Below are positions 6,718-32,000 of a stretch of DNA of 64,000 nucleotides, one piece after another (the first letter of the stretch is position 1; every line of letters begins with the position of its first letter). This DNA is from an uncultured virus (IMG/VR IMGVR_UViG_3300032326_001218) (taxonomy: Duplodnaviria; Heunggongvirae; Uroviricota; Caudoviricetes), in the IMG/VR virus record IMGVR_UViG_3300032326_001218; one strand, written 5' to 3'. Both the position numbers and the translations under genes were made by a program. A model generated the notes under the pieces. That model saw nothing but the letters and a program-made list of their open reading frames with translations. It was not told the DNA's origin and made no database searches.

Positions 6718-6740
6718 AAAAATTAAATAAAGGTTTTTGA

Positions 6741-6748
6741 ATATTTAT
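6741..6748 (+). promoter_or_regulatory. ATATTTAT putative late-promoter motif
   Basis: 16 nt before ATG 6765. Confidence 0.6.
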
Positions 6749-6764
6749 TAAAAGAAACAAACAA

Positions 6765-10134: not shown

Positions 10135-10143
10135 TAAAAAAAT

Positions 10144-11673: not shown

Positions 11674-11676
11674 GTT

Positions 11677-12462: not shown

Positions 12463-12493
12463 TTCTTTCCAAACACTATTCTTTTTGTTTCTA

Positions 12494-12501
12494 ATATTTA
12501 T
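12494..12501 (+). promoter_or_regulatory. ATATTTAT putative late-promoter motif
   Basis: 27 nt before ATG 12529. Confidence 0.65.
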
Positions 12502-12528
12502 AGGTAACGTTTAAAATAAGTACTTATA

Positions 12529-13695: not shown

Positions 13696-13699
13696 TATT

Positions 13700-14155
13700 A
13701 TGGCGAGATTTGCATTATCAAGAGATATAAGGTTCTTTGAGAGCATAGCCAGAGAATTGGTTGATGTTGTTGTTGAAACCAGTGTAGTTTTATACAAACT
13801 AATCATAGAAGATAGTAAAACTAATTTATACGGAGAATCGTTAAATAAAACATACTATCAAGGATTAGAGTGTACTGCTATGATTGAAAGGGAATCTTCT
13901 ACAAGTGATTATGAAGGATTCGGACCAGATAAAAATCAATTAGTAGAATTTCGTTTTAACCGATTTACTTTAGAGGATAAGGGATTTTATCCTGAAGTTG
14001 GTGATATCATTTTTCATAATAATGGATATTTTGAAATTGATAATATAAGAGAAGACCAATTAATTGGTGGACAAGTTGAAAATAAATTTTCAATTATATG
14101 TTCTACATTTATGACTAGAAGAAGTACGATACAAACTGAAATGAGAATTGTATAA
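13700..14155 (+). CDS. gp14: Head closure / neck protein, T4 gp14-like
   Basis: NLYGES...GFG...PEVGDII...FEI motifs and synteny after gp13. Confidence 0.75.
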   Translation: MARFALSRDIRFFESIARELVDVVVETSVVLYKLIIEDSKTNLYGESLNKTYYQGLECTAMIERESSTSDYEGFGPDKNQLVEFRFNRFTLEDKGFYPEVGDIIFHNNGYFEIDNIREDQLIGGQVENKFSIICSTFMTRRSTIQTEMRIV

Positions 14156-15213
14156 TGGAAAAAAGAGAAACAAATAGGGCCAAACAATTATCAATAGATA
14201 AACAATTCCAAAAAGGAGTTAAGATTATAGATGTTGATTCTGCAATAGCTGATTATATGTCTAAAGTTATTATTCCAAATTTAGAAGAAAACGGAAATTT
14301 ATTAAAAGTTCCTTTAATTTATGGTAATGCGGAAAGATGGGAAGGAGCAAGAAAGCAAGGGTATTTAAGAGATGCGAGAGGCAGAATTCAAATCCCAATG
14401 ATAATGTTCAGAAGAAGTAGTATTCAAAAAAATGAATCTATGCCAGTTTTCAAAGAGGCAGGAACAATACAATATGCTAAAAAATATTCTGCAAAAAATA
14501 GATATGATAGATTTTCAATAATGACCGGTGCTCAACCTGTTTATGAAATTTATAGTGTATCAATTCCATCATATGTAACTATACAATATGAAATGGTAAT
14601 TTGGACATCTTTTACCGAACATATGAACGTATTAGTTGAAGCATTTCAAAATCAAAGTGAAAGGTATTGGGGAATGGAAGATGGTTTTAAATTTAAAAGT
14701 TCAATTAGTTCTTTTGAAACTTCACAAGAAGTTGCACAAGGAGCTGAAAGAGTTATTAGAACTTCATTTACTACAACTGTAAACGCATATCTTTTACCTG
14801 AAATTGTTGATAACAAACCAACTATGAATAAATCATTCAGTCCAAAAAGAGTTGTTTGGGGAGTTGAAACAGACCTTTCTGGAGGAAAATTTGCAGGATT
14901 GAATGTGTACCAAGAATATGCAGATGTTGTAAATTTTATTGCAATACGAGGACATCAAGAAGCAGTCTTTGTTAATTCTACAACTGCTAAATTAATAAAT
15001 GTAAAACAACCAGTTTTACCAAATGAGTTGATTGGTGTATTTGATGTAAATAACTGGTTTAGGGTTTATCTAAATGGTGATTTTATATCTCCAACATATT
15101 ATACATATGTTTATGATGGTAATGCTAAAGAAATTACATTTACATTTACTTTATCATATCCAATAGAAGTTACCGATGAAATTTTAATAACTGGTAAATT
15201 CCAAGAGCTATGA
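14155..15213 (+). CDS. gp15: Tail terminator / sheath stabiliser, T4 gp15-like, with an extra C-terminal domain
   Basis: KVPLIYGNAERW...RIQIPMI...P-YVTIQYEM-IWT gp15-like motifs and synteny. Confidence 0.75.
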   Translation: MEKRETNRAKQLSIDKQFQKGVKIIDVDSAIADYMSKVIIPNLEENGNLLKVPLIYGNAERWEGARKQGYLRDARGRIQIPMIMFRRSSIQKNESMPVFKEAGTIQYAKKYSAKNRYDRFSIMTGAQPVYEIYSVSIPSYVTIQYEMVIWTSFTEHMNVLVEAFQNQSERYWGMEDGFKFKSSISSFETSQEVAQGAERVIRTSFTTTVNAYLLPEIVDNKPTMNKSFSPKRVVWGVETDLSGGKFAGLNVYQEYADVVNFIAIRGHQEAVFVNSTTAKLINVKQPVLPNELIGVFDVNNWFRVYLNGDFISPTYYTYVYDGNAKEITFTFTLSYPIEVTDEILITGKFQEL

Positions 15214-15566
15214 ACATAAAATTATTAAAAAATATAATGAAAGAAGTAAATGAGCCAAATGAATATGAATTTTTTTCATATGATTTGTCACATCCTTACT
15301 ATTGGATTTATAAACTTGATAATGTTAGGGTTAAAACTTTATATGAACCACTTACCAAGTTTAGAAAAACAACCGCAAGATATGATATTTTTATAAATGG
15401 TTTATTTATTAGAGAAGCGGATTATATTTTAGAACCAGAGGGAAATGGATTATTTTTAAAATTTATCAGAAGTCAGTTTCCAGAATTTGACCGTTTTGGA
15501 AATCCATATGCGTTAATTGAATCGGATGAAGTAAAAATAACAGGTGATGTAGAAATTATTAAATAA
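15210..15566 (+). CDS. Small structural protein resembling the gp15 C-terminal extension
   Basis: YDIFINGLFI...DY...F...DEVKITG matches FRVYLNGDFI...YY...F...DEILITGK in the preceding gene; ATGA overlap. Confidence 0.6.
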   Translation: MNIKLLKNIMKEVNEPNEYEFFSYDLSHPYYWIYKLDNVRVKTLYEPLTKFRKTTARYDIFINGLFIREADYILEPEGNGLFLKFIRSQFPEFDRFGNPYALIESDEVKITGDVEIIK

Positions 15567-15952
15567 TGGCGAGAAAAGTACCAAATATCAACAAATCAAA
15601 TATTCTTCAAAAAAGAGATAGATTGGCATTTAAACAATTTGTTTTAGATGTTAATATTGATACATTCATATATTCATTTAGTCCGGATTATATAAATTTA
15701 GATGAAAGTGGACAACTATTTACATTATATCTTTTAGATAAAAAGTTTAATATAGATATTTTAGAAATAGATAGTGTGAAAGATTATATTGATGTATATT
15801 TATTTGGAGTAAAGCAACCTCAAGATAGATATGAAATTCGTGTAGATGAAAATAATATAGAGGTTACATTTATTGTTCCTATAACATTAGCTCCTGCTTC
15901 CGTTGTGGCAACTGATTTTGAAATAAAAGGTAAAATATCTGATATACTATAA
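15566..15952 (+). CDS. Small structural protein of the same domain family
   Basis: IDVYLFGVKQ...RY...VTF...DFEIKGK; translationally coupled through TAATG overlaps. Confidence 0.55.
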   Translation: MARKVPNINKSNILQKRDRLAFKQFVLDVNIDTFIYSFSPDYINLDESGQLFTLYLLDKKFNIDILEIDSVKDYIDVYLFGVKQPQDRYEIRVDENNIEVTFIVPITLAPASVVATDFEIKGKISDIL

Positions 15953-18900
15953 TGGCAAGACTGATACCACGTAAACAAATTGAAGAACAACAGGATATAA
16001 GTAGTTCACTTAACATTAGACAAAACGTTAATGTTGGAAACGATGCCATTATATCTGGCTCATTATTCGTATCTAAAAGTTTCTTTTTAGGAACGGAAAC
16101 GGGCTCTAAAAGTGAAATAACTGGTTCGGTTTTTTTAACTGGCTCATTAACAATTGATGGACAATTAAAAGTTGCAGCACCTGAAACCGTTCTTGCGGTA
16201 ACCGCATCAAACACTTTATTAGCGGTTGATACTCAACGATATGCTGGTATTCTTGCAAAAGATTTTGGTGCTAACGTACCAACACTTTATGTATCTTCAA
16301 CTGATGGGGATGATACAAACGATGGTAGAAGTATTCAATATCCACTTCGTACAATTAAAAGAGCGGCTTCATTGGCATCTCCGGGGTATGATGGTAGATA
16401 TGGATTTGATACTGGTTCAATATTCAATGGATATGTAATCAAGGTACAGGCTGGAACGTATTTAGAGGATAATCCTGTGATTCTTCCTAAAAACACAACC
16501 ATTTGGGGTGCCGGTTTGCGTATCACCAAGATTAACGCGAAAAACCCCACAGAAGACCTTTTCTATGTAAACTCTGGATGTTATATTGCGGAAGTAACAA
16601 TGGGTGGTTTGAGATTATATCCAGACCAAATAAATCCTGAAAAAGGATTTGCGGTTGCTTTCCAACCTGGTGCATTTATTACAACTTCACCATACGTTCA
16701 GAACTGTTCTCAAATTTCAAATCAAGAGAATTCATTCACCGAACTTTATGAAGATATCCCACCAGGCGGCGGAGGTCTTTACGTTAATGGTGATGTGATA
16801 GATCCAGATTCTCCACTAGCTTCAATGGTATTGGATGCTTATACTCAAATTTCTCCAAATGGTGTGGGATGTTTGGTAAATGGTAGAGGTTTCATTCAGT
16901 TGGTATCTTTCTTTAATAACTTCTCATATTATTCTATTAGAGTAAATAATGGTGGACATGCTACCCTAAACAACTCAAACATTTCGTTTGGTTTATATGG
17001 TATGTATGCATCCGGTTCTCGTTTTATTTCTGGTAGTGGTGGTAATATTGCTGCTAGAGATTCTGTTAGAGGAACTTGGAGTTGTGTTGTTGATGTATTG
17101 AATAAAGGATTGGAAAACGGATTACCTACAATAACAAAATTAAATACTGATGAAGGTATTCGTTTAACTTCTCCGGCATTATACACACAAAGTAGAGTAT
17201 CTGCTGGAACTTCATTATCAACTGCTGCAGCGGAAGAAATATCGGCTGATTATAAATTAATAAGTGCAATTGTTGACAGTGGGGTATCAAACTTTCCAAC
17301 TTTATTGGCAAAGAGTTCTATAAAAGGATATGGATTTGATTCTCCTTATAATATTTTAGGAGCAGAGCAAATAACATCATCTATATCAGCATCAAATGCG
17401 GATTTAGTTCAAATAAGTGCATCTTATGCCGCTATTTTGAGTATATTGGCAAATGGTACGGGTTCGTTTAATTTTAGACCAAACACAAGTGCAAGTAGAC
17501 AAATAGGTAATGATGTTATACAACCAATAGGGAGTGTAGCAACAAACTATACTTCATCGGTAAGTGCATCGTTTAACAATATAATTAATATTATTAAATC
17601 AGGCCTTTCTGCTAAACCAACGTTTATCTCAAATACAAGTGCTAGTATTAAAGCTGGTAATACCGAACAAGTAATGCTTGGTGTGACATCATCATTAGCA
17701 ACAATAAATTCGGTAAGTGCTAGTTTTAGTATTGTTTATAACATTTTAGCAAATGGTACCGGTAGTAATATTTTACCAATACCAAACAATCATCAAAAAT
17801 CATTTGTAATAACAAACACAAATAGTTCTTCATTTGATTTTGAAGGAATTGGTAGTAATCCTACATTAACTTTATTTAGAGGAGAAACCTACAAATTCAA
17901 CGTAGATGCAATAGAAACATTTGGTGGAATTGAATATCCATTTTGGATTAGAACACAGCAGATAGAAGGTATTAGTGAGAAATTTGATTATAATATTGGT
18001 ATGGTTAATAATGGTGATAGTAGGGGAACAATAACCTTTACAGTACCATATAATGCACCAAATAAATTATATTATGTATCACAGAATAGAAGTTCTATGG
18101 GTGGTGAAATTAACATAGTAAATTCATCTACAACCCCATTTGAATTAATTAGAAATACATTAACATATCCAGCCACAATACAAAGTGGTTCAATAGCTAA
18201 AACTGCTATTGATATCATAACTGCATACGAAATATTAGTAAATAATAAAGAATTTATTAAAGATGAAGTTATTCAATTTGTATCTTCTTCTTGGAGTGAA
18301 TTTTACTATCCAGAAGAAACTTGTAAAAGAGATGTTGGATATATTATTGATGGTGTAGCAAAAGACCTACTTTTTGGGGGTAATGAAGAAAGTATTAGAA
18401 ATGGTTTATTTTATTATCAATTTCCATCCGAAGCAACTACAACACAATTAGGACCAACATTAACTGCAGTTAAGCACGCAGCGGGTGTTGCATTAAATTT
18501 GATTAGAGGTAGAGTATATGTAGAACCAAACAATGAAGTAATTGATGTTTGGGATACAATCAGGGATAATAGAACATTTATACAAAATGAAGTTATAACT
18601 TATCTATCATCATCTTGGTCTAATTTTTATTACAACGAAGTAAAATGTAGACGTGATACTGGTTATATATTAGATGCTGTAGCAACTGATGTAAAATACG
18701 GTGGTAATGAAAGAGGTATAACTGCCGGTGAATACTATTATTTATATCCTTCATTAGCAATTGTACAAGGAGATGGAGATGGTGTTGGGCAATTAGGACA
18801 AACTGTGGATGGTATAAGATATGCTAGTGGATTAGTTGATAATCTATTAAAAGGAAAAACATTTACATCACCTAATGCATCAACTTTATCTGCATATAAT

Positions 18901-21900
18901 AATTTAATTAATAATAAAGAATTAATTCAAAACGAAACAATCCAATTTATTAATGTTGCATTTCCAAATTTAAAATATAATCAAGCAACTTGTAGGAGAG
19001 ATGTTGGTTATATCGTTGATAATGTGGCAACGGATTTACTATATGGTGGTCTTGAACGAGGTGTAATTGCGGGTAGATATTATTATGATTTCCCATCACA
19101 GGCTACAAGAACACAAAAATCATCAACTATTGCGGGTATTCGTTATGCAAAAATTATTGGAGATACTATTGTTCAAAATCAAATATTAGATACACCTCGT
19201 ATTGTTTATAATGATGAGAGAAACTTCAGATTATCCGGACTAACAAATATAACATCATCTTTTGGTGGTGGTACGATTGAACAAACTTCGGTTGGTAATT
19301 CATTTTCAATTATAGAAGGAATTGTGGCAAGAGGATTGGGTTCAATTAAATCACTATTGGCACAGAATACTGGATTAAATTGGAATAAGTACAATCCAAT
19401 AAATGTAACTACCGGTTCTCAAATAACCTCATCTTATACAACACCGGATGAAGTAGATAAAATTGGTAAGAGCTTTGATATTGTAAATACAATTATTGGT
19501 GGTGGATTAGCAGCAGAGCCTTTATTCACATCGTCTCAAGCAAATGCAATTGCCGTAACAGGTACACCGCAAATAACAGCTTCATTAGCAGTTAGTGGCT
19601 CGGTTACATCATCTATATCGGCATCAATTGCGTATGTAGCAACTATAATAACAAACGGTACTGGTTCATTAGGTGCGTTGGTTTCAAATCTAAATTCAAA
19701 TGTAAAAGTAACCAATACACCACAATACATAACTGGTTCTGGCTATTATGGAACATCTACTGAAAGTACACAATTAAGTTCTTCAATAAAAATAATCACC
19801 GATATATTAGAAGGTGGATTATCTTTTGTACCTACTCTTATATCAAATGTAAGTGCAAGTATTAAAGTAACAAATGTACCACAATATATTTCTTCATCTT
19901 ATTCGGCAAGTGTAAATGATGTAAACTTTATATCATCATCAATATCAATAGTAACAAAGATAATTGAAGGTGGAGAGTTCTCAGCACCTACATTCCAACC
20001 ATATACAAATAGAATAACATCATCTAATAGTGTAGCAGCTTATGAAATACTTAAAAACAATATTCCATTTATACAAAATGAAACTATTGCTTATTTAAGT
20101 TCTTCTTGGGCTGGATTTGAATATGATGAAACTAAATGTAGACGTGATTTAGGATTTATATTGAGCGGTTCCGCAGAAGATTTAATATGGAATGCAAATT
20201 CGGCATCTATATTTAACGGATTATTTTATTGGGAATTCCCATCACAAGCGCAAGGAGCTCAACTACAACAAACATTAGATGGTATCAACTACGCAAGTAG
20301 ATTAGCACAAAAGGTAATTCAAAATATAGAATTCACTGCGGTAGGAAATGATGCGTTGAACGCGGCAACCTTATTGGTAAATAACAAAACATTCATACAA
20401 GATGAAACAATCGCGTATTTAAGTTCTTCTTGGAGTGAGCATCCATATAACGAAACAACTTGTAAAAGAGATGTTGGGCATATAATAGATGCAATTAGAA
20501 CTGACTTAGTTTATGGTGGTAATGAAAGAAGTAGAAACGCTGGAGTATTCTATTATCTATATCCATCTGAAGCAACTGGTTCACAATTACTTCCAACGTT
20601 AGATGGTATCAACTATGCGGGTAGAATGATACAAAAGATTGTTACTGGTTCGGTATTCGTTTCGGCAGATGGAAATAAAGTAAATGCAAGTAATTTAATA
20701 TTAAGAAACAAAAACTTAATTGCAAACGAAGTAGTTGCTTATGTAAGTTCTTCTTGGAGTGAAGCAGAATACAATCAGGCTAAATGTTTAAGAGATACTA
20801 AATATATTTTAGATGCTGTAAGAACTGACTTGGTATATGGTGGTAACGAAAGAACTAGATTTGCAGGAGAATACTATTATAGATATCCATCAGCAGCAAT
20901 TGTAGGTGGAGTACCTTCGGCAACACAACAATTAGACCCAACTATAACCGGTGTAAATTACGCAAATCAATTAGTACAAAATATAATTAAGAATGTTGTA
21001 TTATCTGCACCATCTACATCAGTATTAAATGCGGCAAGTTTATTAAAAACTAATAGAGCATTTTTACAACAAAATACCGTTGATTACGCAAATGAAACGT
21101 ATCCTAATTTAGATTATATTGAAAGTAAATGTTATAGAGATGCTGGATTTATTGTAGATGCTGTAATTACTGATTTGGTTTATGGTGGCAATGAAAGAAG
21201 TATAACTGCCGGACGATTCTATTATTTATATCCATCTCAAGCTACCGGAGTTCAATCCGAAGAAACAATTGATTCACTAAACTTCACAAAAGGTTTAGCA
21301 AAATTAGTAGCAATTGGTGGAAAAGAAATAGAAGATGGTTTTGATATTGTATCTAAAGTAATTGAAAGTGGAAGTAATACAGCACCTAACGTAGTATTAA
21401 ATACTACTGCTGGAATTAAAGCAACCAATGCTCAACAAATTACATCATCTATATTAGTAGTAGCAAACGATAAATCCATTGTATCAGCTTCATTTGGTAA
21501 TGTACTTAATATTGTATCAAACGGAACTGGTTCAATACCAACAAATATTGTTAAAAATACAAATAGAGGTGTAAATGTTTTAGGTGGTACACAAATAACA
21601 TCTTCAATAACACCGGCTAATTCCGAAAAAACAAAAGTAACTACTGGATTTGATATCGTACTTGATATTGTAGAAAATGGAACAGGTTCAATTCCAACTA
21701 TTGTAACAAATGTAAATTCTTTAATTAAACGAACTACTACAAATAGTTACATAACAACTGCATCAATATCATCTACATATCTTACATCTTCAAATAATAA
21801 TTTTGATATTGTTTTGGATATTGTTGAAAATGGAACTGGTTCTTTACCTACGTTGATAAAAAATGTTGACGGGTTAGTAAAAATAACAGATACAAATCAA

Positions 21901-24900
21901 TATACATCTTCGGTAATTGTATCATCTTCGTTGGCAAGAAATATATCTGCAAGTTTTGATACAATTATAAACATATTAGAAAATGGTACTGGTTCATTAC
22001 CTACTATTACTTCAAATGTAAATAATATTAAAGTAACCGATGCTACTCAATATTTAGGAGGAACACCGGCAACGCAAACGGAAGCTAATGCAATATCTGC
22101 ATCAATTTCTATTGTAACAAATATAATAGCAAATGGAACGGGTTCATTACCGATTGTAACTTTATATACATCATCAATATCATCTTCAAATGTAATAGCG
22201 GCTTATACTATTCTAAAAAATAATTTAGATTTCATAGTATCGGAAAGTATTGCATATTTAAGTTCTTCTTGGTCAACTGCATCTTACGATGAAAGTAAGT
22301 GTAAACGTGATTTAAGATTTATATTAAGTGGTTCGGCTGAAGATTTATTATGGAACGCAAATTCAGCATCAGTATTCAATGGTGTTTATTATTATCAATT
22401 CCCATCTCAAGCACAGGGTGCACAATTAAACCAAACAATTGATGGAATAAACTACGCTAGCCGTTTAGCACAAAAAATAGTATTAAATACTTTATTTGTA
22501 ACACAATCGGCGCAAATTAAAGATGCGTATAGTTTATTAGTTAATAATAAAGAATTTATTAAGAATGAAGTAATACCTTATATAAGTTCATCTTGGAGTA
22601 CACATCAATACGTTGAATCAACTTGTAAGAGAGATATAGTACACATTATAGATGCAGTTTCTACTGATTTATTATATGGTGGAAATGAGAGAACAATAAA
22701 CGCTGGAGTATTCTATTATCTATATCCATCTGAAGCAACCGGTTCACAAATAGAGGAGACTGTTACTGGTATTCAATATGCTAGAGATATTGCATTCAAA
22801 ATTATTAGAGGAAATACATTTACTAAAGTATCTCAAAATAAATTAGAAGCAAAAGAATTAATTTATAACAATAGAGAATTTATACAAAACGAAGTTATAA
22901 GTTATGTATCTGCCAGTTGGAGTACGATATCTTACAATGAATTAACTTGTAAAAGAGATGTTGGGCATATTTTAGATGCCGTAACAACTGATATAGTTTA
23001 TGGTGGTAATGAGAGAAGTATAAATGCCGGTGTATTCTATTACGAATACCCGTCACAAGCAACAACATCTCAATTGGGGGCAACATTAAGTGGAATCAAA
23101 CATGCGAAAGGTTTAACCGATAAAGTATTAAAGAACTCAACATTCGCATCGGCATCTAATTCAAATACTTCAGCATACGAATTGATATTCAATAATAAAT
23201 CATTTATACAAGATGAAACTATTGCATATCTATCTTCTTCTTGGAGTACATTCCCTTATAACCAAACTACTTGTAAGAGAGATATTGGTTATATATTAGA
23301 CGCAGTAGCGACTGATATCCTTTACGGTGGAAACGAAAGAGTGGCTGAGGCAGGAGAGTATTATTACTTATATCCTTCATTGGCAACCGTAGGTAACGAT
23401 GGTGATACCGGTGGACAATTGAATCAAACTTTAGATGGTATTAAATACGCTAAAGGAATTACTGAAAAGATTGTAGCAAATATATTATTACAATCTCCAA
23501 CAACATCTGAATTAACTGGATTTAATTTATTAACGGATAATAAGAAGTTTATACAAAGTGAATCAATCGCTTACTTATCTTCGTCTTGGAGTGGTGATGA
23601 TGGATTCTCTTATAACGAAACTACTTGTAAGAGAGATATTGGATATATTATAGATGCAGTAAGAACCGATTTATTATATGGTGGAAACGAAAGAAGTTCT
23701 AAAGCAGGTGAGTACTATTATCTATACCCATCTGCAGCAATTCTAACGGGTTCTATTTCACCAACCACCGAAACTCAAAAAGGACCTACACTTGATGGAA
23801 TACAATATGTAGCTGGTACTGCACAAAATGTAATATCAAATAAAGTATTGATAGCACCAACTGGATTTGTAACATCATCAGTTAATTTATTAAGACAGAA
23901 TAAGAAGTTTATACAAAACGAAACTGTACAATACATAGACGCATTCTTCCCTAATTTAGTTTATTTAAGAGAAAAATGTAGACGTGATGTTGGGTATATT
24001 TTAGATGCAGTTATAACTGATACTTTCTACGGTGGAAATCAAAGAAGTGTTATAGCTGGACAATATTATTATTTATATCCATCTTTAGCAACAAAGAGTA
24101 CGCAAGTTAGAGAAACTGTGGAAGGTGTTGAATACGCTAAAGCATTAGCTAAGGCAATAGCACAAAATATTAAATTAAATTCACCAACACTAACATCAAA
24201 TACTGATAATAACATAAAGGTTTCTGGTGTAACGCAATTTACATCTGCTAATAGTGGAAGCTCTGCTGAAGTAACAAATGTTTCTTCATCATTTAGTATT
24301 GTAACTAAAATTATTGAAGGTGGTGTTGAAGTAAAACCAGCAATCATATCAAATGTTGAAAATAGAATAAAAGTAAATAACATTTCTCCAATCACATCAG
24401 CAAGTGCTGCAAGTACAACTGAAATTGGTTTAATTACTGCTTCATTTAATTTGATTACTGATATTATTGAAAATGGTTCTGCATCTTTACCTGATTCATT
24501 AGTTTCTAATTTCCCATCTTTATATGGATTTAATTTAGAGACACCAAACTTATGGAATATTAGTTCAGATTCTCAAACAATTGGAACTGGAACATATCCA
24601 ATCCAAACAAATATTGCAAGTTCTTCATTTGGAAATGTGATTAATATAATTGCAAATGGTACTGGTTCAATTCCTATATTGGTAACAAACGCTAGTGGTT
24701 CAATTACAAAGACGGGATTACTACCAATTGCAAATACACAAACCGCTGGGCAATTTGAAATAAATAAAGTATCATCTGGATTTGGGATTATTTTGGATAT
24801 CGTAGAAAACGGAATTGATGTAATTTCTACAATTACACCGAATGCATCGTCATCTATAAAAATAACCGAAACTCCACAAATTATAAGTGGAAGTGGTGGG

Positions 24901-27900
24901 GCAAGATTGCAAGGTAAATTAGTATCAGCATCTTTTGCAACTGTGATTGATGTGTTATTAAACAATGGAACATCTTCTATTGGATTTAGACCATCAACAT
25001 TCCCAATAGCAAATTCAAATACAAAGATAAATTCGGCATATAACTTATTAGTAAGTAACTCTAAATTTATAGTTGATGAAACTATTGCATATATGAGTTC
25101 GTCTTGGAGTGCATTTGAATATACTCAAAGTAAGTGTGAAAGAGATTTAGCAGGAATTATTAGTGGTTCGGCATTTGACCTTTTATATGGCGGTAATTCA
25201 GCATCTTTATTTAATGGTAAGTTCTATTTTGATTATCCATCCCAAGCTACTGGTTCACAATTAGACCAAACTATAACTGCATTAAAGTACGCAAGTGGTG
25301 TGGCTGAAAAAGTTGTACAAAATATTTTATTAACACATATATCAGCATCTGCTACTATATCAGCATCTTTTGAAGCACTTACTAAAAATAAGGCATTTAT
25401 TCAAAGTGAAAGTATTGCGTATGTAAGTTCTTCTTGGAGTGAGTTTGGATATGATGAGATTAAATGTGCTAGAGATATTGGATACATTGTAGATGCAGTA
25501 AGAACCGATTTATTATATGGTGGAAATGAAAGAAGTGTAGTGGCTGGTAAATATTATTATGATTTCCCATCTCAAGCTACCGATTCTCAATTAGAACCAA
25601 CTTTAACTGGTATTAGATACGCAAAAGGATTGGCATTGAATGTAATTAAAAATGTACAATTCTATGTAACTTCATCTTCTACTATAAATTCTTATAATTC
25701 AATTAGAAACAATAAGAAGTTTATTCAAAGTGAAAGTGTTGCTTATATAAATGCTAAATACCCTGATTTCTACTACAATGAAGAAACTTGTAAGAGAGAT
25801 GTTGGATATATAATTGATGCGGTGGCAACTGATTTACTATATGGTGGAAATGAGAGAAGTAACAAAGCTGGTGAGTTCTATTACTTATACCCATCCGAAG
25901 CTACCGGTACTCAATTGACCGAAACAATAGATGGAATTAAATACGCAGCTAGATTAGTATCTGCTTCTATAAACAATTGGTTGATACCTACACCTGTATC
26001 TCAATCATCTGGTTTAACTCCATCAAACGATTTATTAAAGATTGCGGCATACGATTTATTAACTCAAAACATAGGATTTATCCAAAGTGAGAGTATTTCA
26101 TTCTTATCATCTTCTTGGAGTGGATTTGAATATGATAGTTCGGTATGTTCTAGAGATATTAGATACATTGTTGAGGCAGTAGCGGGTGATATCCTTTATG
26201 GTGGAAATCATAGTAGTTCATTAGCTGGAATTTATTATTGGGATATTCCATCAAAAGTTACTGGTTCTCAATTAGACCCAACCGTAACGGCAATTGATTA
26301 CGCAAAAGGTTTAGCAACTAAATTAGTTCAGAATCTTTCATTTAATACTGCTTCATTGGATGTTTCATCATCGGTAGCATTATTAAGAAACAATAGAACA
26401 TTTATTGTAAGTGAAAGTATGGCTTACTTAACTGCAAGTTGGAGCACTTTTGAATATGATAAGGTAAAATGTGCTAGAGATTTAGGATACATATTAGATG
26501 CGGCAACTACTGATTTATTATACGGAGGAAACGAAAGAAGTGTAATAGCTGGTGACTTCTATTACAAATATCCATCAAAAGCAATCTTATTGGGAGATGG
26601 TGATGGTGTTGGACAATTAGGACAAACGGTTGATGGTATTAAATATGCAAGTAGAGTAGCACAAAAGATTGTGGGTGGTGCTATATTCGTAACCGCATCA
26701 ATTGAAGCATCTGCATCATTTGATTTGTTGAGAAAAAATAAGGCGTTTGTTGCAGAAGAAACAATTAAATATGTATCTTCATCTTGGAGTAGTGTATATT
26801 ATAACGAAGCAACTTGTAAGAGAGATGTTGGATATCTAATAGATGCAGCGGCAACCGATGTGTTATATGGTGGACAAGAAAGAAGTGTAATAGCAGGGCA
26901 GTATTATTATTTATATCCTTCTAACGCTATTAATTCAGGTGTTCCATCAACCCAAAACCAATTAGACCCAACACTTACTGGTATCAGATATGCTGGAAAA
27001 TTATCTAAAAAGGTAATAACCAATCCAACATATTTAGTACCTTCGGCATCTTTACTAACAACCGCGAAATTGTTGACAGATAATAAAGAATTAATACAAA
27101 AAGAAACTATAACATTCTTATCTTCATCTTGGAGTGGATTAAAGTACAATGAAGTAAGTTGTTCTCGTGATTTAGGATTTATCATAGACGCAATTAGAAC
27201 TGACTTAGTTTATGGTGGTAATGAAAGAAGTATTGAAGCGGGTTCTTACTACTACAAGTTCCCATCAGTAGCAATAGTAGATAGTTATAGTGATAATAAT
27301 GGACAAAAGAAACAAACGGTAGATGGTATTAACTTTGCAAGAGGACTTTCTGAAAAGATAGTTGCAAATACGTTATTAACTTATTTGGCTCCATCAACTA
27401 AAAGAAGACAAGCGGCAGAACGATTAAAACTTGGTAAAGAAGAATTAAAGCAAAGAGCAATTGGATACACAAATGGAGCATTCCCATATTTAGTATATAA
27501 TGAGGCAAGTTGTTCACGTGATACTGGATTTATTGTAGATGCGTGTGTAACCGATTTATTATATGGTGGAAATGAGAGAGGAATTAGAGCGGCATCTTCA
27601 TACTACGATGGACAATATGGAAGTGCAATTGCAGTGACTAGAGACCAATTATTAGAAACTCTTGAAACTAATAGATATTTAAGAACAAGAGCAGAGTTTA
27701 TAGCAGCGGGTGCACCATTGGAATCATTTGGTTCATTGATTGTGGCAACTGGTATTGACTACTCTTATAATGGTAGTGGTGTGACATTCAAAGCATTACC
27801 TCCAAATCAGGGTGGTAGTGGTGTTGCAAATCCAGCATTTGAAATTACCGAATTGGGTGGTGGTAGAATCTTCTTTACCTCTGGTAACCAAGATGGTGAC

Positions 27901-28017
27901 TTTAGAATTGGTACTGGTTTAAGTATTAATCAGGCAACTGGTACTCTTGTGGGTAGAACATTTAGTAAATCTCTATTCTCATTAGTAACTCCGTTCTCAT
28001 TGGCACTACAAATTTAA
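15952..28017 (+). CDS. Giant 4021-aa virion protein: pectin-lyase-like beta-helix, 21 phycobiliprotein-like CxRD repeats and a degenerate cupredoxin-like domain
   Basis: LYVSSTDGDDTNDG...LRTIKRA...IKVQAGTY-E--P beta-helix start; 21 repeats of L..N..FI..E...Y.SSSWS...Y.E..CxRD.G.I.DAV.TDL.YGGNERS..AG.YYY.YPS; intact frame. Confidence 0.85.
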   Translation: MARLIPRKQIEEQQDISSSLNIRQNVNVGNDAIISGSLFVSKSFFLGTETGSKSEITGSVFLTGSLTIDGQLKVAAPETVLAVTASNTLLAVDTQRYAGILAKDFGANVPTLYVSSTDGDDTNDGRSIQYPLRTIKRAASLASPGYDGRYGFDTGSIFNGYVIKVQAGTYLEDNPVILPKNTTIWGAGLRITKINAKNPTEDLFYVNSGCYIAEVTMGGLRLYPDQINPEKGFAVAFQPGAFITTSPYVQNCSQISNQENSFTELYEDIPPGGGGLYVNGDVIDPDSPLASMVLDAYTQISPNGVGCLVNGRGFIQLVSFFNNFSYYSIRVNNGGHATLNNSNISFGLYGMYASGSRFISGSGGNIAARDSVRGTWSCVVDVLNKGLENGLPTITKLNTDEGIRLTSPALYTQSRVSAGTSLSTAAAEEISADYKLISAIVDSGVSNFPTLLAKSSIKGYGFDSPYNILGAEQITSSISASNADLVQISASYAAILSILANGTGSFNFRPNTSASRQIGNDVIQPIGSVATNYTSSVSASFNNIINIIKSGLSAKPTFISNTSASIKAGNTEQVMLGVTSSLATINSVSASFSIVYNILANGTGSNILPIPNNHQKSFVITNTNSSSFDFEGIGSNPTLTLFRGETYKFNVDAIETFGGIEYPFWIRTQQIEGISEKFDYNIGMVNNGDSRGTITFTVPYNAPNKLYYVSQNRSSMGGEINIVNSSTTPFELIRNTLTYPATIQSGSIAKTAIDIITAYEILVNNKEFIKDEVIQFVSSSWSEFYYPEETCKRDVGYIIDGVAKDLLFGGNEESIRNGLFYYQFPSEATTTQLGPTLTAVKHAAGVALNLIRGRVYVEPNNEVIDVWDTIRDNRTFIQNEVITYLSSSWSNFYYNEVKCRRDTGYILDAVATDVKYGGNERGITAGEYYYLYPSLAIVQGDGDGVGQLGQTVDGIRYASGLVDNLLKGKTFTSPNASTLSAYNNLINNKELIQNETIQFINVAFPNLKYNQATCRRDVGYIVDNVATDLLYGGLERGVIAGRYYYDFPSQATRTQKSSTIAGIRYAKIIGDTIVQNQILDTPRIVYNDERNFRLSGLTNITSSFGGGTIEQTSVGNSFSIIEGIVARGLGSIKSLLAQNTGLNWNKYNPINVTTGSQITSSYTTPDEVDKIGKSFDIVNTIIGGGLAAEPLFTSSQANAIAVTGTPQITASLAVSGSVTSSISASIAYVATIITNGTGSLGALVSNLNSNVKVTNTPQYITGSGYYGTSTESTQLSSSIKIITDILEGGLSFVPTLISNVSASIKVTNVPQYISSSYSASVNDVNFISSSISIVTKIIEGGEFSAPTFQPYTNRITSSNSVAAYEILKNNIPFIQNETIAYLSSSWAGFEYDETKCRRDLGFILSGSAEDLIWNANSASIFNGLFYWEFPSQAQGAQLQQTLDGINYASRLAQKVIQNIEFTAVGNDALNAATLLVNNKTFIQDETIAYLSSSWSEHPYNETTCKRDVGHIIDAIRTDLVYGGNERSRNAGVFYYLYPSEATGSQLLPTLDGINYAGRMIQKIVTGSVFVSADGNKVNASNLILRNKNLIANEVVAYVSSSWSEAEYNQAKCLRDTKYILDAVRTDLVYGGNERTRFAGEYYYRYPSAAIVGGVPSATQQLDPTITGVNYANQLVQNIIKNVVLSAPSTSVLNAASLLKTNRAFLQQNTVDYANETYPNLDYIESKCYRDAGFIVDAVITDLVYGGNERSITAGRFYYLYPSQATGVQSEETIDSLNFTKGLAKLVAIGGKEIEDGFDIVSKVIESGSNTAPNVVLNTTAGIKATNAQQITSSILVVANDKSIVSASFGNVLNIVSNGTGSIPTNIVKNTNRGVNVLGGTQITSSITPANSEKTKVTTGFDIVLDIVENGTGSIPTIVTNVNSLIKRTTTNSYITTASISSTYLTSSNNNFDIVLDIVENGTGSLPTLIKNVDGLVKITDTNQYTSSVIVSSSLARNISASFDTIINILENGTGSLPTITSNVNNIKVTDATQYLGGTPATQTEANAISASISIVTNIIANGTGSLPIVTLYTSSISSSNVIAAYTILKNNLDFIVSESIAYLSSSWSTASYDESKCKRDLRFILSGSAEDLLWNANSASVFNGVYYYQFPSQAQGAQLNQTIDGINYASRLAQKIVLNTLFVTQSAQIKDAYSLLVNNKEFIKNEVIPYISSSWSTHQYVESTCKRDIVHIIDAVSTDLLYGGNERTINAGVFYYLYPSEATGSQIEETVTGIQYARDIAFKIIRGNTFTKVSQNKLEAKELIYNNREFIQNEVISYVSASWSTISYNELTCKRDVGHILDAVTTDIVYGGNERSINAGVFYYEYPSQATTSQLGATLSGIKHAKGLTDKVLKNSTFASASNSNTSAYELIFNNKSFIQDETIAYLSSSWSTFPYNQTTCKRDIGYILDAVATDILYGGNERVAEAGEYYYLYPSLATVGNDGDTGGQLNQTLDGIKYAKGITEKIVANILLQSPTTSELTGFNLLTDNKKFIQSESIAYLSSSWSGDDGFSYNETTCKRDIGYIIDAVRTDLLYGGNERSSKAGEYYYLYPSAAILTGSISPTTETQKGPTLDGIQYVAGTAQNVISNKVLIAPTGFVTSSVNLLRQNKKFIQNETVQYIDAFFPNLVYLREKCRRDVGYILDAVITDTFYGGNQRSVIAGQYYYLYPSLATKSTQVRETVEGVEYAKALAKAIAQNIKLNSPTLTSNTDNNIKVSGVTQFTSANSGSSAEVTNVSSSFSIVTKIIEGGVEVKPAIISNVENRIKVNNISPITSASAASTTEIGLITASFNLITDIIENGSASLPDSLVSNFPSLYGFNLETPNLWNISSDSQTIGTGTYPIQTNIASSSFGNVINIIANGTGSIPILVTNASGSITKTGLLPIANTQTAGQFEINKVSSGFGIILDIVENGIDVISTITPNASSSIKITETPQIISGSGGARLQGKLVSASFATVIDVLLNNGTSSIGFRPSTFPIANSNTKINSAYNLLVSNSKFIVDETIAYMSSSWSAFEYTQSKCERDLAGIISGSAFDLLYGGNSASLFNGKFYFDYPSQATGSQLDQTITALKYASGVAEKVVQNILLTHISASATISASFEALTKNKAFIQSESIAYVSSSWSEFGYDEIKCARDIGYIVDAVRTDLLYGGNERSVVAGKYYYDFPSQATDSQLEPTLTGIRYAKGLALNVIKNVQFYVTSSSTINSYNSIRNNKKFIQSESVAYINAKYPDFYYNEETCKRDVGYIIDAVATDLLYGGNERSNKAGEFYYLYPSEATGTQLTETIDGIKYAARLVSASINNWLIPTPVSQSSGLTPSNDLLKIAAYDLLTQNIGFIQSESISFLSSSWSGFEYDSSVCSRDIRYIVEAVAGDILYGGNHSSSLAGIYYWDIPSKVTGSQLDPTVTAIDYAKGLATKLVQNLSFNTASLDVSSSVALLRNNRTFIVSESMAYLTASWSTFEYDKVKCARDLGYILDAATTDLLYGGNERSVIAGDFYYKYPSKAILLGDGDGVGQLGQTVDGIKYASRVAQKIVGGAIFVTASIEASASFDLLRKNKAFVAEETIKYVSSSWSSVYYNEATCKRDVGYLIDAAATDVLYGGQERSVIAGQYYYLYPSNAINSGVPSTQNQLDPTLTGIRYAGKLSKKVITNPTYLVPSASLLTTAKLLTDNKELIQKETITFLSSSWSGLKYNEVSCSRDLGFIIDAIRTDLVYGGNERSIEAGSYYYKFPSVAIVDSYSDNNGQKKQTVDGINFARGLSEKIVANTLLTYLAPSTKRRQAAERLKLGKEELKQRAIGYTNGAFPYLVYNEASCSRDTGFIVDACVTDLLYGGNERGIRAASSYYDGQYGSAIAVTRDQLLETLETNRYLRTRAEFIAAGAPLESFGSLIVATGIDYSYNGSGVTFKALPPNQGGSGVANPAFEITELGGGRIFFTSGNQDGDFRIGTGLSINQATGTLVGRTFSKSLFSLVTPFSLALQI
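18217..27690 (+). repeat. 21 internal ~108-aa CxRD repeats in four blocks (3, 4, 6, 8)
   Basis: Cys codons at 18322, 18646, 18991, 20137, 20461, 20785, 21130, 22300, 22624, 22948, 23272, 23626, 23977, 25135, 25465, 25789, 26146, 26470, 26815, 27160, 27511; spacing is often exactly 324 nt. Confidence 0.95.
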
Positions 28018-28045: not shown

Positions 28046-28963
28046 ATGGCAGAAGTTTTTGTACCCTTAAATCGGTTTCAGTCAGTAGTATCGGGATTGA
28101 CCGGAGAACAAGATGAAATATATGCAACTCCTCTTGGGGTATCATCTATTGTACTGTCTTGTCAAATTACAAATAATAGTTTGGTAACACAACCCGTTAC
28201 TATATTAGTAACATCTAATAGAGAATTACCGGTTCCTAATTTTGAAGGTCTTTTAATAAGCGGTTCTTTTTATAGTGGCTCTACATCTTTGGAAAATTTT
28301 AGTGGAAGTTTTGCTAGTGCATCTTTGTTACTAAATGCGAACAGACAATTTTTAAGAAAAGAAATAGCAGCATACACACAAAATCAAAATAGTTTATCAG
28401 AAACTCCATTTACTTTTATATCATCTTATTTTGAACAAAACACATTAGATGATGTTGATGCAATAAAATATGATATAGTTAATAACACAACAATCAGAAC
28501 AAATAAAGCAGCAAAAGCATACTTTGATAAAAATGGAGTATCTGCGATTGCAACAACCGAATATTCGGCTTCTATATTTGCTTTAGATTATTTAAAAGTA
28601 TTATCTAATCAAATTATAAAAAATCAATCAACAACTGGCTCGGCCGATTCTCCATTATTATTTCAAAATGTAGTTACTCAATCAGTACTAACTGGATTTA
28701 CAAATGGAACTCAAGCCGGAATTTCGGCATCTATCTATTTGGTTAATAGTTTAGTAGATGTTATCAAAGCAACTATTGAAAATCCAACATTTGTTGAACA
28801 ACCGCCAGTTGAATTGGTGACAAATGTAACAATACCAGTAGCAGATTCACTTTCACCGGTGGTTTCTGGTAAATTGGTACTAGAAGAAGGTTACGGATTT
28901 ATAGTTTCCGGCTCAACCAAGCTATCGGTAGTTCTATCTCTACTTGAATCTGCTAATGAATAA
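28046..28963 (+). CDS. Fibre partner protein, paralogue of 41525..41857, with one inserted Cys-less helical repeat
   Basis: N- and C-termini align with the 110-aa ORF (IY..P....IV....I.N and LV..V.I....S.....KLVLE); the middle (LLLNANRQFLRKEIAAY...DAIKYDI...ALDYLK.L) resembles the repeat of the upstream giant protein. Confidence 0.7.
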   Translation: MAEVFVPLNRFQSVVSGLTGEQDEIYATPLGVSSIVLSCQITNNSLVTQPVTILVTSNRELPVPNFEGLLISGSFYSGSTSLENFSGSFASASLLLNANRQFLRKEIAAYTQNQNSLSETPFTFISSYFEQNTLDDVDAIKYDIVNNTTIRTNKAAKAYFDKNGVSAIATTEYSASIFALDYLKVLSNQIIKNQSTTGSADSPLLFQNVVTQSVLTGFTNGTQAGISASIYLVNSLVDVIKATIENPTFVEQPPVELVTNVTIPVADSLSPVVSGKLVLEEGYGFIVSGSTKLSVVLSLLESANE

Positions 28964-29031: not shown

Positions 29032-32000
29032 ATGGCAATTAGTAATCTATTATCAGGTAGGGTAAGGGTAGTATCCCCAAAAAACGTAACACAAGACAGG
29101 TATCAATTCGTTGATTTATCTCAAGTTGAACCAAATTTGGGTGTTCCAAATTTTAGTGCCTCACTTTCCGGTTCTCCGGCTATCGTAGTTTCGGATGACC
29201 AAGGTAATAGAGGATTTGTAAGAAGTTTAGATTTAGATAGAGTAACCGGACAATTTACTGGTTCTTTTACTGGTAGTGCTGAATCTTTAAGCGGTAGTTT
29301 TACTGGTTCATTTTCTGGCTCATTTTCTGGTTCTTATTTTGGTGATGGTGCTGGTTTAATTAATTTACCAGACACAATACGTTTAGCTAGTGGTTCTGCA
29401 ACCGCATCAATTTCTCCTAATTTTGGATTACAAATAAATGTTGATACAACGATTGCAGAAAATTTATATGTATCAAAATCAATATATGCTGAACAATTAG
29501 TTGTTAGTATAATTTCTTCATCTGTAATATACTCATCCGGTTCAAACAAATTTGGTGATGAGTTAAGTGATAAACAAGAATTTACCGGTAGTGTAACAAT
29601 TACAGGTTCTTTAGCTGTAGAAAATCAAATTATATTTGGCGAAGCAAGTGGTTCTTCTATATCAGCATCATTTACTGGTTCTTATTTTGGAGATGGTGCC
29701 GGATTATTTAATTTACCACAAGCTACAAAATTAGCAAGTGGTAGTGTAACTGCATCTGTTAGTCCTGAAAATGGATTTGTAGTAACTTCAATAGAGAGTG
29801 GTTCTATATTTAGTGGTAGTGTAAAATTATCATCTGGTTCATTTTTTAGTGGTTCTGGTAGATTCCTATTTGATATACCTGAATCCGCTTTATCATTTGC
29901 ACCTTTTAGAATTGCAAGTGGCTCGGTAACAGCATCTGTTTCTCCTGTATTTGGGTTTAGAGTTGAATCTGCTGCGAGTGGTTCTGAATTTACTGGTAGT
30001 ATTAAATTGGCATCCGGTTCATTCTTTAGTGGTAGTGGTAGATTCCTATTTGATATTCCAGAATCTGCACTCTCTTTTGCACCTTTTAGAATTGCAAGTG
30101 GTAGTGTAACAGCATCTGTTTCTCCTGTATTTGGGTTTAGAGTTGAATCTGCGGAGAATGGTTCTGAATTTACCGGTAGTGTTGATATAAGTGGTTCGGT
30201 AAATGTTAATGGTGATGTAACCGCATCTTTCTTTGTGGGAGATGGTAGTAAATTAACAAATGTACCATCGCTTGTTGCACCTAGAATTGCAAGTGGTTCT
30301 GCTACCGCATCAATATCACCTGATAAAGGATTAGAAGTTAATACATCTGTTACAATAGCGGGTTATTTGGTAGCAACTGGTTCAATTTCGGCATCACAAT
30401 TTAGTGGTAGTGGTAGAGGATTATTTGATATACCTCGTTCGGCATTATCAGAAGAAGTATTTAGAATTGCAAGTGGTAGTGTAACTGCATCTGTTAGTCC
30501 TGATGAAGGATTTAGAGTAATATCAGCAGATAGTGGTTCTCAATTTACCGGTTCCTTAATTGTAAGTGGTAATATATCACTAACTTCTGGTTCATCGTTT
30601 AGCGGTAGTGGTGAAAGATTATTTAATATTCCTAGAACGGCTTTAGCTCCAGATGCATTAATTTCAAATTTAATTGCAAGTGGTAGTGTAACTGCATCCG
30701 TAACCGATGTGGACGGTTTCGTTGTAAAATCGGTTGCAAGTGGTTCAACGTTTAGTGGTAGTGTTTTCTTATCATCTGGTTCATTCTTTAGTGGTAGTGG
30801 TGAAAGATTATTTAATATACCTCGTTCGGCTATTTCTAATTTAGATGTTAATTTAATTTTCTCTGGCTCTGCAACCGCATCTATTGACCCGGTAAAAGGA
30901 TTTAATGTAAACATTTATAGTAAGTTTAGTGGAAGTATGATTGTTTCATCTTCAAACTATCCAATTCCAAGTCAATCATTAAATACCGTATTTGATGTAA
31001 CCAATGGCGGATTTAGTTCGTATGTGTTTACTAATGCAATAAGTGGAATAAATCCAACATTAACGTTAGTAAGAGGTGTTACTTATACCTTTAATATAAG
31101 TGCAAGTGGACATCCGTTTTGGATAAAATCCGGAAGTGTTCAAACAGGAACTGGAGGTTCATATAATACGGGTGTTACGAATAATGGAACTGATAATGGA
31201 ACTATTACATTTAGTTTGGATGAATTAACACCTAGTAACTTATACTACGTTTGCCAGAATCATAGTGCAATGCAAGGTAGTATCAATGTTGTTAATTCAA
31301 TTGAAATACCTGCCGAAATTACATTTATTGGAAAAACCAATATAACAGGAAGTTTAGGAGTAAGTGGGAGTGTATTTTTAGGAAGTGGTTCATTCTTCTC
31401 CGGTAGTGGTAGAGGATTATTTGATATTCCACTATCAGCATTTACTGGTGATGCATTTAGAATTGCAAGTGGTAGTGTAACTGCATCGGTTTCACCTGCT
31501 TACGGATTTAGAGTAGAATCTTTGCAACTTGGAAGTGAATTGACAGGTAGTGTTAGAGTATCGGGTTCACTTACTGCTGAAAGAATATTTTCACCTGAAT
31601 TTAGCGGTTCTTTTGAAGGTGATGGTAGTAGATTAAGAAATGTACCATCAATAGAAGGAACGAGAATTGTATCTGGATCTGTAACTGCATCTGTTTCTCC
31701 TGTATATGGATTTAGATTAGAAGGGGCTAATAGAGCAGAATTTTCATCATCAATATTAGTAAGTGGGAGTGTAGAAATATCATCTGGCTCATCGTTTAGT
31801 GGAAGTGGTCAAAGATTATTTAATATACCAAGAACAGCACTTGCTCCTGATGCACTATTTAGTGAAAAAATTGTTAGTGGTAGTGTAACTGCATCCGTTT
31901 CACCAAATGAAGGATTTGTAGTAACCTCAATAGAGAGTGGTTCTATATTTTATGGAGAGGTAAAAGTAATAAGTGGTTCTTCGTTCTCTGGTAGTGGTAG

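Follow-up and report, generated by a model that had tools for sequence, protein, structure and literature searches.

Split, phycobiliprotein-like domains in apparently nested order in a giant tail-fibre-type protein of an uncultured phage

Recursive domain insertion, in which an inserted domain is itself the host of a further insertion, is already known. In a 2026 survey, the Si3 insertion in the β′ subunit (RpoC2) of cyanobacterial RNA polymerase is described as nested in the order A1-B1-C-B2-A2, to up to six levels and with 8–10 domains, and the six-level Si3 of RpoC2 is named there as the complex example (PMC13114784); six levels is also the deepest nesting that we found in print. Here we analyze a giant protein of 4,021 residues (P0001), which is encoded on the plus strand at 15952–28017 of a 64,000-nucleotide stretch of DNA from an uncultured virus of the Caudoviricetes (IMG/VR record IMGVR_UViG_3300032326_001218); this whole stretch is called the window below. 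An earlier note, made from the sequence alone, had proposed that the protein contains 21 incomplete domains with a Cys-x-Arg-Asp (CxRD) motif, the A units, and 21 lone amphipathic helices, the B units, which pair like brackets to form a branched, out-and-back chain. As in Si3, a domain would be interrupted repeatedly by a copy of the same kind, with branch points at which one host holds several inserts (PMC13114784). Unlike Si3, the giant protein would hold 21 domains, reach a depth of nine and have four tips, and it is a phage virion protein of the tail module. Its domains are all-helical and globin-like instead of sandwich-barrel hybrid motifs, and the point of the split is always ahead of the last helix.

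Another relevant comparison is with the tandem CxRD proteins of T4-like cyanophages, S-PM2p091 (“tail fiber protein”) and the “short tail fiber protein” of S-CAM1, which are homologous to the giant protein and belong to the same PHROGs. They share with it the CxRD core and a B-like amphipathic helix with a G-x-x-S-L-P-like end. However, in the tandem proteins core and helix are contiguous and plainly repeated, with a period of about 131 residues in S-PM2, whereas in the nested class the helices are gathered in upstream runs and the order is bracket-like. In the main text of the papers searched, no account was found of phage virion proteins with arrays that are nested or phycobiliprotein-like.

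The CxRD motif occurs 21 times in the giant protein, in blocks of 3, 4, 6 and 8, with cysteines at residues 791, 899 and 1014, then 1396–1727 (four copies), 2117–2676 (six) and 3062–3854 (eight). Cys, Arg and Asp are invariant across the alignment of all 21 A units. B units were located with a hidden Markov model (HMM) that was seeded on 11 obvious copies and then refined on homologues. This HMM gave 21 matches of at least 2.1 bits on the giant protein and four others, all at or below −1.8 bits; the weakest calls are B1 (residues 354–388, 2.1 bits) and B11 (residues 1792–1813, 7.7 bits). The motif count and the B-unit HMM confirm the 21 A and 21 B units that had been claimed and their order, B5-A3-B5-A4-B6-A6-B5-A8, where each number is the length of a run. 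With B as an opening and A as a closing bracket, the depth after each run is 5, 2, 7, 3, 9, 3, 8 and 0, with a maximum of nine. The array extends from the start of B1 at 17011 to the end of A21 at 27720, close to the span of 17050–27690 reported previously.

Several sequence features had been cited in favor of last-in-first-out pairing, and most of them hold. In the alignment, A3, A7, A13, A16 and A21 have F/Y-P instead of SSSWS, and their last-in-first-out partners B3, B7, B11, B19 and B1 have the odd upstream linkers that had been quoted. A4, A8 and A14 share the SGSA.DL...NSAS.FNG subtype, with a mutual identity of 56–72%. The neighboring open reading frame (ORF) at 28046 contains, though with weak scores, an A-like core (residues 93–196, 22.5 bits) followed by a B-like helix (residues 211–246, 2.2 bits), as had been stated. 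The suggestion that the outermost pair, B1 and A21, each carry an extra Cys stands only in part: Cys378 and Cys3865 are present, but a conserved disulfide is not borne out. In 114 homologues the two positions are C/C in 36, V/C in 33 and C/A in 6, and they vary among V, I, L and C. With both cysteines in only 36 of the 114, we rejected a disulfide between these units.

If B and A units are partners, their numbers should change together. We annotated 120 homologues and the window protein (n = 121) with fixed HMM thresholds. At the 2-bit threshold for B units, A and B counts were equal in 82 of the 121 proteins, and all 82 were balanced; the number of equal-count proteins was 43 at 0 bits, 59 at 5 bits and 44 at 8 bits. 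The balanced architectures comprised 19/19, 20/20, 21/21, 22/22, 23/23, 24/24, 25/25, 27/27 and 28/28 units, so that the expectation of equal and balanced counts in homologues with other repeat numbers is upheld. Block sizes change in step (B5A5, B7A7, B8A7, B6A5, B4A3), and entire balanced arms are inserted in some homologues (B6A4B4A6, A3B1A6). The loss or gain of one contiguous B-A segment preserves balance trivially, but no single contiguous event could produce a paired expansion such as B7A7. Among the ORFs in the fetched loci that were not flagged as cut by the locus end, counts were equal in 15 of 21; of the remaining six, four differ only in the weak B1, which was missed, one falls short by two calls, and in one the ORF begins at base 5 of the locus. 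Balance is also seen in more distant nested-class proteins (18/18, 12/12, 12/12, B4A4 and B3A3); a minimal natural homologue, P0175, has 1,086 residues and B4A4. Insertions of about 420 residues occur within a B run in some homologues (P0023, P0024, P0034; loci L008 and L026), and some carry precomputed Pfam flags, among them one for F5/8 type C. The arms seem to take up extra self-contained domains without loss of balance.

To identify the partner of each B unit, we aligned 114 non-identical full-length homologues to the window protein (effective number 46.5) and calculated mutual information with average product correction for each combination of a B with an A unit. The observed covariation picks the last-in-first-out A partner at rank 1 of 21 for 16 of the 21 B units, with a mean rank of 1.43 compared to 11 expected by chance. 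The ranks were 1, 1, 1, 1 and 3 for B1-A21, B2-A20, B3-A3, B4-A2 and B5-A1; 1 throughout for B6-A19, B7-A7, B8-A6, B9-A5 and B10-A4; 1, 5, 2, 2, 1 and 1 for B11–B16 with A13 down to A8; and 2, 1, 1, 1 and 1 for B17–B21 with A18 down to A14. The long-range pairs B1-A21, B2-A20 and B6-A19 are thus all at rank 1, and they include partners more than 2,500 residues apart. Within the arms the signal is anti-diagonal, with B7 covarying with A7 and not with the nearer A4, which indicates that it does not come from linkage along the sequence. The summed pairing score was 7.43, compared to 5.23±0.19 for random pairings (maximum 6.25 in 200,000), 6.33±0.19 for shuffles within arms (maximum 7.27; none of 200,000 reached 7.43) and 6.07 for parallel pairing within arms. 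The result was stable when only the 97 sequences free of gaps of 25 or more were kept and when the top 3 to top 20 scores were used, with rank 1 for 14–16 of 21 units from the B side and 18–20 of 21 from the A side. Even when all 41 other units were allowed as partners, neighboring B units included, the predicted A unit was the top partner of 15 of the 21 B units. Pooling of the 21 pairs showed that B helix columns 39, 40, 43 and 46/47 covary with columns 91, 88, 85 and 81 of the last A helix, in an antiparallel register, and that further contacts involve the Cys-bearing A helix (column 46) and the next A helix (columns 59–63). When the partners were rolled by one, the top pooled score fell from 0.192 to 0.089.

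To place the protein in its wider family, a profile search of 1.84 billion representatives was carried out and yielded 1,008 clusters at E ≤ 0.001. Proteins with fewer than two short core spacings were assigned to the tandem class, which holds 119 of the 146 new proteins with at least three A units. Most of these alternate A and B. Their core spacing has a median of 160 residues, and only 24 of 1,123 spacings are shorter than 122 residues, whereas in the first 121 homologues, which are mostly nested, 2,088 of 2,564 spacings are below 122 residues and the short spacings have a median of 108 residues. Arrays that the HMM called A-only have a spacing of 131–167 residues with a diverged B-like helix between the cores, and so do S-PM2p091 and the S-CAM1 fibre. 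These spacings indicate that cores lacking a helix of their own are found for the most part in proteins with matching numbers of B units further upstream. In 463 B units of the tandem class (effective number 440), B covaries with the preceding core (B39-A84, 0.26; B40-A88, 0.22), and the top value for the following core is only 0.08; the column pairs are largely those seen in the nested protein. This result supports B as the last helix of the domain, and the earlier proposal that B is the helix missing from each A unit is strengthened by the presence of a B-like helix after every core in the tandem relatives. Two proteins of the tandem class are nested core first: P0199 (A1B1A2B1A2B1A2B1A1B4) and P0213 (A1B1A2B1A2B1A1B3). 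Both are balanced with A as the opening bracket, and, judging from unit order in the sequence, nesting of the opposite polarity seems to exist as well.

The predicted structures agree with this assignment. The AlphaFold model of B15-B16-A8-A9 (327 residues, 29-row alignment) had a mean predicted local distance difference test score (pLDDT) of 87.3 and a predicted template modeling score (pTM) of 0.86; all five models were at 85–87, and the B helices at about 93–97. For the whole of arm 3, B11–B16 with A8–A13 (956 residues), the best model had a mean pLDDT of 79.7 and a pTM of 0.65. In this model the helices of B11–B16 are at model residues 2–17, 49–68, 101–120, 152–171, 203–222 and 253–272, and each A core has five helices. 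Structural matches to the arm-3 model were single domains of about 100–125 aligned residues, and their ranges join the predicted pairs: 16–30 to 950–956 (16 rows; unit B11 to A13), 29–841 (B12 to A12), 82–723, with a poor root-mean-square deviation (rmsd) (B13 to A11), 139–606 and 149–606 (B14 to A10), 202–499 and 229–500 (B15 to A9), and 276–393 (B16 to A8). No row of this search points to another B-A pairing. The pairs B11-A13 to B16-A8 had been named beforehand as the ones to look for in such a model, and the modeled match ranges are consistent with all six.

Taken together, three independent tests, namely the conserved balance, the partner-picking covariation and the match ranges of the AlphaFold models, lead us to favor one-to-one, last-in-first-out nested pairing of B with A, to which we assign a probability of roughly 85%. 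The bracket scheme of the earlier note is therefore supported by counts, covariation, tandem relatives and models. With its inserted domains themselves acting as hosts, as the last-in-first-out covariation and the arm-3 match ranges show to a depth of nine, the protein qualifies as a case of recursive insertion.

The architecture that we propose is as follows. The virion (tail-fibre-type) protein would consist of 21 globin-like, phycobiliprotein-like domains, each split in two. An A unit of about 100 residues would provide five helices, one of which bears the CxRD motif, and a B unit of about 50 residues would provide the sixth and last helix, antiparallel on the last helix of the core, together with a short extended stretch. 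In the nested lineage the last helix would be encoded before its core, with further whole domains inserted between the two. The chain would then run out along B helices, turn at a tip formed by contiguous B and A units, and return by closing the domains one by one. The trunk would be formed by B1/A21, B2/A20 and then B6/A19, and it would carry four arms of 3 domains plus an extra tip domain (arm 1), 4 domains (arm 2), 6 domains (arm 3) and 5 domains (arm 4). The N-terminal domain and the C-terminal tail would meet at the root, through which the protein may be attached to the virion; the branched shape of the single chain is likewise what we infer from the pairing.

All units were placed by HMM on the plus strand. 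The first B run (17011–17769) comprises B1 (17011–17115), B2 (17185–17301), B3 (17350–17472), B4 (17521–17625) and B5 (17626–17769), and the first A run, whose CxRD cores score 137–140 bits (18223–19194), comprises A1 (18223–18525), A2 (18550–18870) and A3 (18889–19194). Between B5 and A1, at the putative tip of arm 1, lies an inserted domain of about 150 residues (residues 607–757; 17770–18222, plus strand) that is neither A nor B. It is strand-rich and has no Pfam match above the cut-off. The ORF at 915–1757 was considered as its kin and rejected, as no similarity was found. The second B run (19204–19995) is made up of B6 (19204–19350), B7 (19399–19527), B8 (19543–19674), B9 (19684–19836) and B10 (19843–19995), and is followed by A4–A7 (20038–21321), with A4 at 20038–20340, A5 at 20359–20664, A6 at 20683–21006 and A7 at 21028–21321.

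Arm 3 begins with the third B run (21325–22155), which contains B11 (21325–21390), B12 (21400–21543), B13 (21550–21702), B14 (21712–21852), B15 (21874–22008) and B16 (22006–22155). Its cores, A8–A13 (22201–24183), are A8 (22201–22506), A9 (22525–22827), A10 (22849–23151), A11 (23170–23496), A12 (23521–23853) and A13 (23878–24183). The fourth B run (24199–24984) consists of B17 (24199–24342), B18 (24349–24495), B19 (24556–24678), B20 (24700–24828) and B21 (24844–24984). The last A run (25033–27720) consists of A14 (25033–25338), A15 (25366–25665), A16 (25687–25986), A17 (26047–26352), A18 (26371–26694), A19 (26716–27030), A20 (27061–27378) and A21 (27409–27720), and its final three units would close B6, B2 and B1, respectively.

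A number of observations weigh against nested pairing within one chain or reduce the force of the evidence for it. The total of 21 B units rests on a low threshold that admits B1 and B11. At 2 bits, 39 of the 121 homologues have unequal counts, all of them in classes that can be explained: ten ORFs are N-terminally truncated and lack some B units, one is C-terminally truncated with three more B than A, twelve are full-length with only the weak B1 call missed, four have the B11 call missed, and twelve have surplus B calls of 2–7.3 bits inside the last A run. In the covariation analysis B5, B12, B13, B14 and B17 do not have the predicted partner at rank 1 (ranks 3, 5, 2, 2 and 2). Indel mapping between architectures removed B16/A9 and B8/A5, which are not clean partner pairs; this mapping is ambiguous because of gap placement among similar repeats, and it neither supports nor refutes partner-wise loss. 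The alignment behind the arm-3 model was shallow (19 rows), and the other four models reached a mean pLDDT of only 69, 59, 46 and 45. The structural search gives the first and last aligned residue only, so the match ranges are consistent with a hairpin in which the contacts are not directly seen. As to the fold, Z values of 9–10 are below the level that is safe for helical bundles, where Z below about 13 can reflect a common arrangement, and Foldseek found no match to the two-domain model in the PDB at E ≤ 0.001. Finally, covariation and a monomer model cannot separate pairing within a chain from pairing between chains.

This last point is the main residual doubt. Many phage fibres are trimers, and covariation is blind to whether contacts form within one chain or between identical chains, so the same B-A pairs could be formed between the chains of a dimeric or trimeric fibre to give an interlocked bundle instead of a single-chain tree. 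We regard such domain swapping as unlikely, since B and A are only about 15 residues apart at each of the three tips that lack an inserted domain, which favors closure within the chain; the monomer AlphaFold models already satisfy every B helix; and a single chain would require precisely this order of nesting. A global antiparallel homodimer was also considered and discarded, because the B3-A19 pair that it implies is at odds with the covariation.

Two further explanations dispense with B-A pairing altogether. The A units could be complete, independent domains and the B units small domains or linkers, like beads on a string, with equal counts and balance arising by chance or as a by-product of segment duplication. 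Tandem repeats are the norm in phage fibres, an order with B first and A last makes balance not very improbable for one protein, contiguous B-A segment loss or gain keeps the balance without selection, and the ambiguous indel mapping leaves room for this. However, the matched changes to B7A7 and B8A7 are not possible from one contiguous duplication, and the covariation is partner-specific and anti-diagonal in the arms, even for the most distant pairs. Moreover, cores spaced by about 108 residues dominate where B runs lie upstream and are rare in the tandem class, and AlphaFold packs the B helices with high confidence. We therefore consider independent beads very improbable. Still less credible is a stalk, such as a coiled coil, formed by the B helices among themselves and decorated by the A cores. 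The B helices are indeed amphipathic and arranged in runs, and adjacent B units covary somewhat (B20-B21, at 0.39, ties with B21-A14), but the predicted A core, and not a neighboring B, gives the strongest covariation for 15 of the 21 B units. Furthermore, the contact columns of B map to three different helices of the A core, and in the tandem relatives the lone B helices between cores have no other B to bundle with.

If nested pairing within one chain is correct, the giant protein would surpass, in depth and regularity, every case of domain-in-domain nesting known to us, with 21 homologous domains on nine levels in a single chain, and it would be a repeat protein ordered by a bracket grammar and not by simple tandem repetition. 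It would also pose a sharp folding question, as B1, the first helix made, would have to wait until its core follows about 3,500 residues further on. The tandem, nested and reverse-nested relatives, which occur side by side, would form a natural series for the origin of split domains.

The predicted domains resemble phycobiliproteins. Among 48,161 chains, the top structural matches were phycobiliproteins, ApcE and photocobilin, followed by sensor globins, with Z of 8.2–10.3 and rmsd of 2.4–4.3 Å over 98–114 residues; the phycobiliprotein, ApcE and photocobilin chains made up 8 of the 8 top rows for the two-domain model and 8 of the 10 top rows for arm 3. The best of these phycobiliproteins and bilin-binding globins were 8imk_G and 5aqd_M (Z 10.3), 8or7_A (10.1), 4xxi_A (9.3–9.6) and 8j2y_B (9.4–10.2), at rmsd 2.4–3.0 Å over 98–114 residues. 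A search of the ESM Atlas with B16 plus A8 gave no usable match. In sequence, A-unit profiles searched against the PDB returned mainly phycocyanin alpha chains (6 of 7 matches with the 21-unit profile and 6 of 6 with the 83-unit profile), at E-values of 0.5–1.3, which are not significant. The HMMER alignments place CxRD on the phycocyanin alpha Cys84-x-Arg-Asp bilin site (K-C-A-R-D-I-G-Y). At each of the 21 positions the CxRD cysteine is kept in at least 108 of the 114 homologues. The predicted domains have a superposable globin-like helical fold and Cys-x-Arg-Asp on the helix equivalent to that of Cys84. In phycobiliproteins, an N-terminal helix pair forms the alpha-beta monomer. This pair is absent from the A unit, as the alignments start at chain residue 39–40, and the ApcE match covers chain residues 49–220. 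Two further differences from phycobiliproteins are that the last helix is encoded upstream of the core here and that 21 copies lie in one virion-protein chain. The PF00502 gathering score was not reached, as a near-identical homologue scored 12.2 bits (E 0.022) against a cut-off of 22.2, and none of the 21 units matched PF00502 in hmmscan at E ≤ 10; some homologues carry a precomputed PF00502 flag. We thus call the domains phycobiliprotein-like with respect to their fold and motif, without assigning them to PF00502.

The records of relatives add a bilin context. CXRD serves as the motif for covalent bilin attachment, for which some bilin-binding globins need no lyase (PMC10151467). The closest complete relative (G001; 274 kb, rated 100% complete), whose fibre is 97% identical in arm 3, encodes a heme oxygenase (54.1 bits) next to a ferredoxin-dependent bilin reductase (75.5 bits), in overlapping genes at 95.8–96.9 kb (774–1899 of locus L055). 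A second record (G002) has a bilin reductase at 131.3–131.9 kb; the heme oxygenase search covered G001. A bilin reductase is thus present in both of the relatives' records that were searched. No CpeS- or CpeT-type lyase was found in G001. In Synechococcus phage S-CAM1 (L057), the fibre gene (8320–19317) lies about 1 kb downstream of a gene annotated as a CpeT-like antenna protein (6719–7255), a relative of bilin lyases.

A tentative possibility, which we would rather doubt than adopt at present, is that the tree is a pigment carrier. Each of the 21 domains might hold a bilin at its CxRD motif, made by the phage heme oxygenase and bilin reductase, and the virion might then bear a colored, possibly light-responsive branched appendage. 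Pigment binding by the giant protein is here a deduction from fold, motif and gene content. For phages whose hosts are thought to be alphaproteobacteria, the purpose of such genes has been called enigmatic (PMC11480375). A pigment tree, if it exists, would explain what phages with presumed non-cyanobacterial hosts use their bilin genes for. With phycobiliprotein-like cores that carry a near-invariant bilin-site motif in phages with bilin synthesis genes, the role of phage bilin genes would become directly testable.

The giant ORF matches PHROG 4527, “short tail fiber protein” (E 1.7e-186), PHROG 5342, “tail fiber protein” (E 2.1e-171), and PHROG 701 (E 3.6e-61); these labels (short tail fibre, tail fibre, virion structural protein) are annotations and not tested functions. 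Distant relatives of the protein (tblastn, 23–37% identity) were found in 66 phage records, 65 of which are named Synechococcus, Prochlorococcus or other cyanophages. On the whole protein, Pfam gave only sub-threshold noise (Wza_C, RT_RNaseH_2), and phmmer against the PDB gave a chance match only. The N-terminal domain, residues 1–353 (15952–17010, plus strand), which would be the root of the proposed tree, has a sub-threshold Pfam match only, to the pectate-lyase-like beta-helix family PF12708 (E 0.0038, 17.5 bits compared to a cut-off of 27), and the start MARLIPRK is kept in full-length homologues. The conserved C-terminal tail of about 98 residues (residues 3924–4021; 27721–28014, plus strand) is found in homologues without a C-terminal cut and matches the end of PHROG 3442. 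Covariation between the tail and the N-terminal domain had only 16 variable columns to draw on and gave no signal. The downstream ORF of 305 residues (28046–28963, plus strand), in which an unsplit A-like core without CxRD is followed by the B-like helix described above, has a weak match to PHROG 5342 (E 0.00046).

The window contains a T4-like myovirus structural module, which encodes sheath, tube and baseplate hub, a gp15-like tail completion protein and a fragment of the major head protein; the sheath shares 46.5% identity with its counterpart in Microcystis phage Mel-JY01. The giant gene is located between the gp15-like tail completion gene (14155–15213) and collagen-type fibre genes, and the sheath and tube genes lie downstream of it. 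Three more long ORFs of the window have collagen triple-helix repeats, at 29032–39831 (3,599 residues; E 3.7e-100), 41876–51283 (3,135 residues; E 4.3e-46) and 2251–6717 (1,488 residues; E 3.8e-42), and the second of these ends in a Peptidase_S74 intramolecular chaperone domain. The G+C content rises to 0.43–0.49 at 36–40 kb of the window, the site of collagen repeats. A tail-fibre assembly chaperone (Phage_tail_APC, E 1.9e-15) is encoded at 40738–41181, between collagen-type fibre genes.

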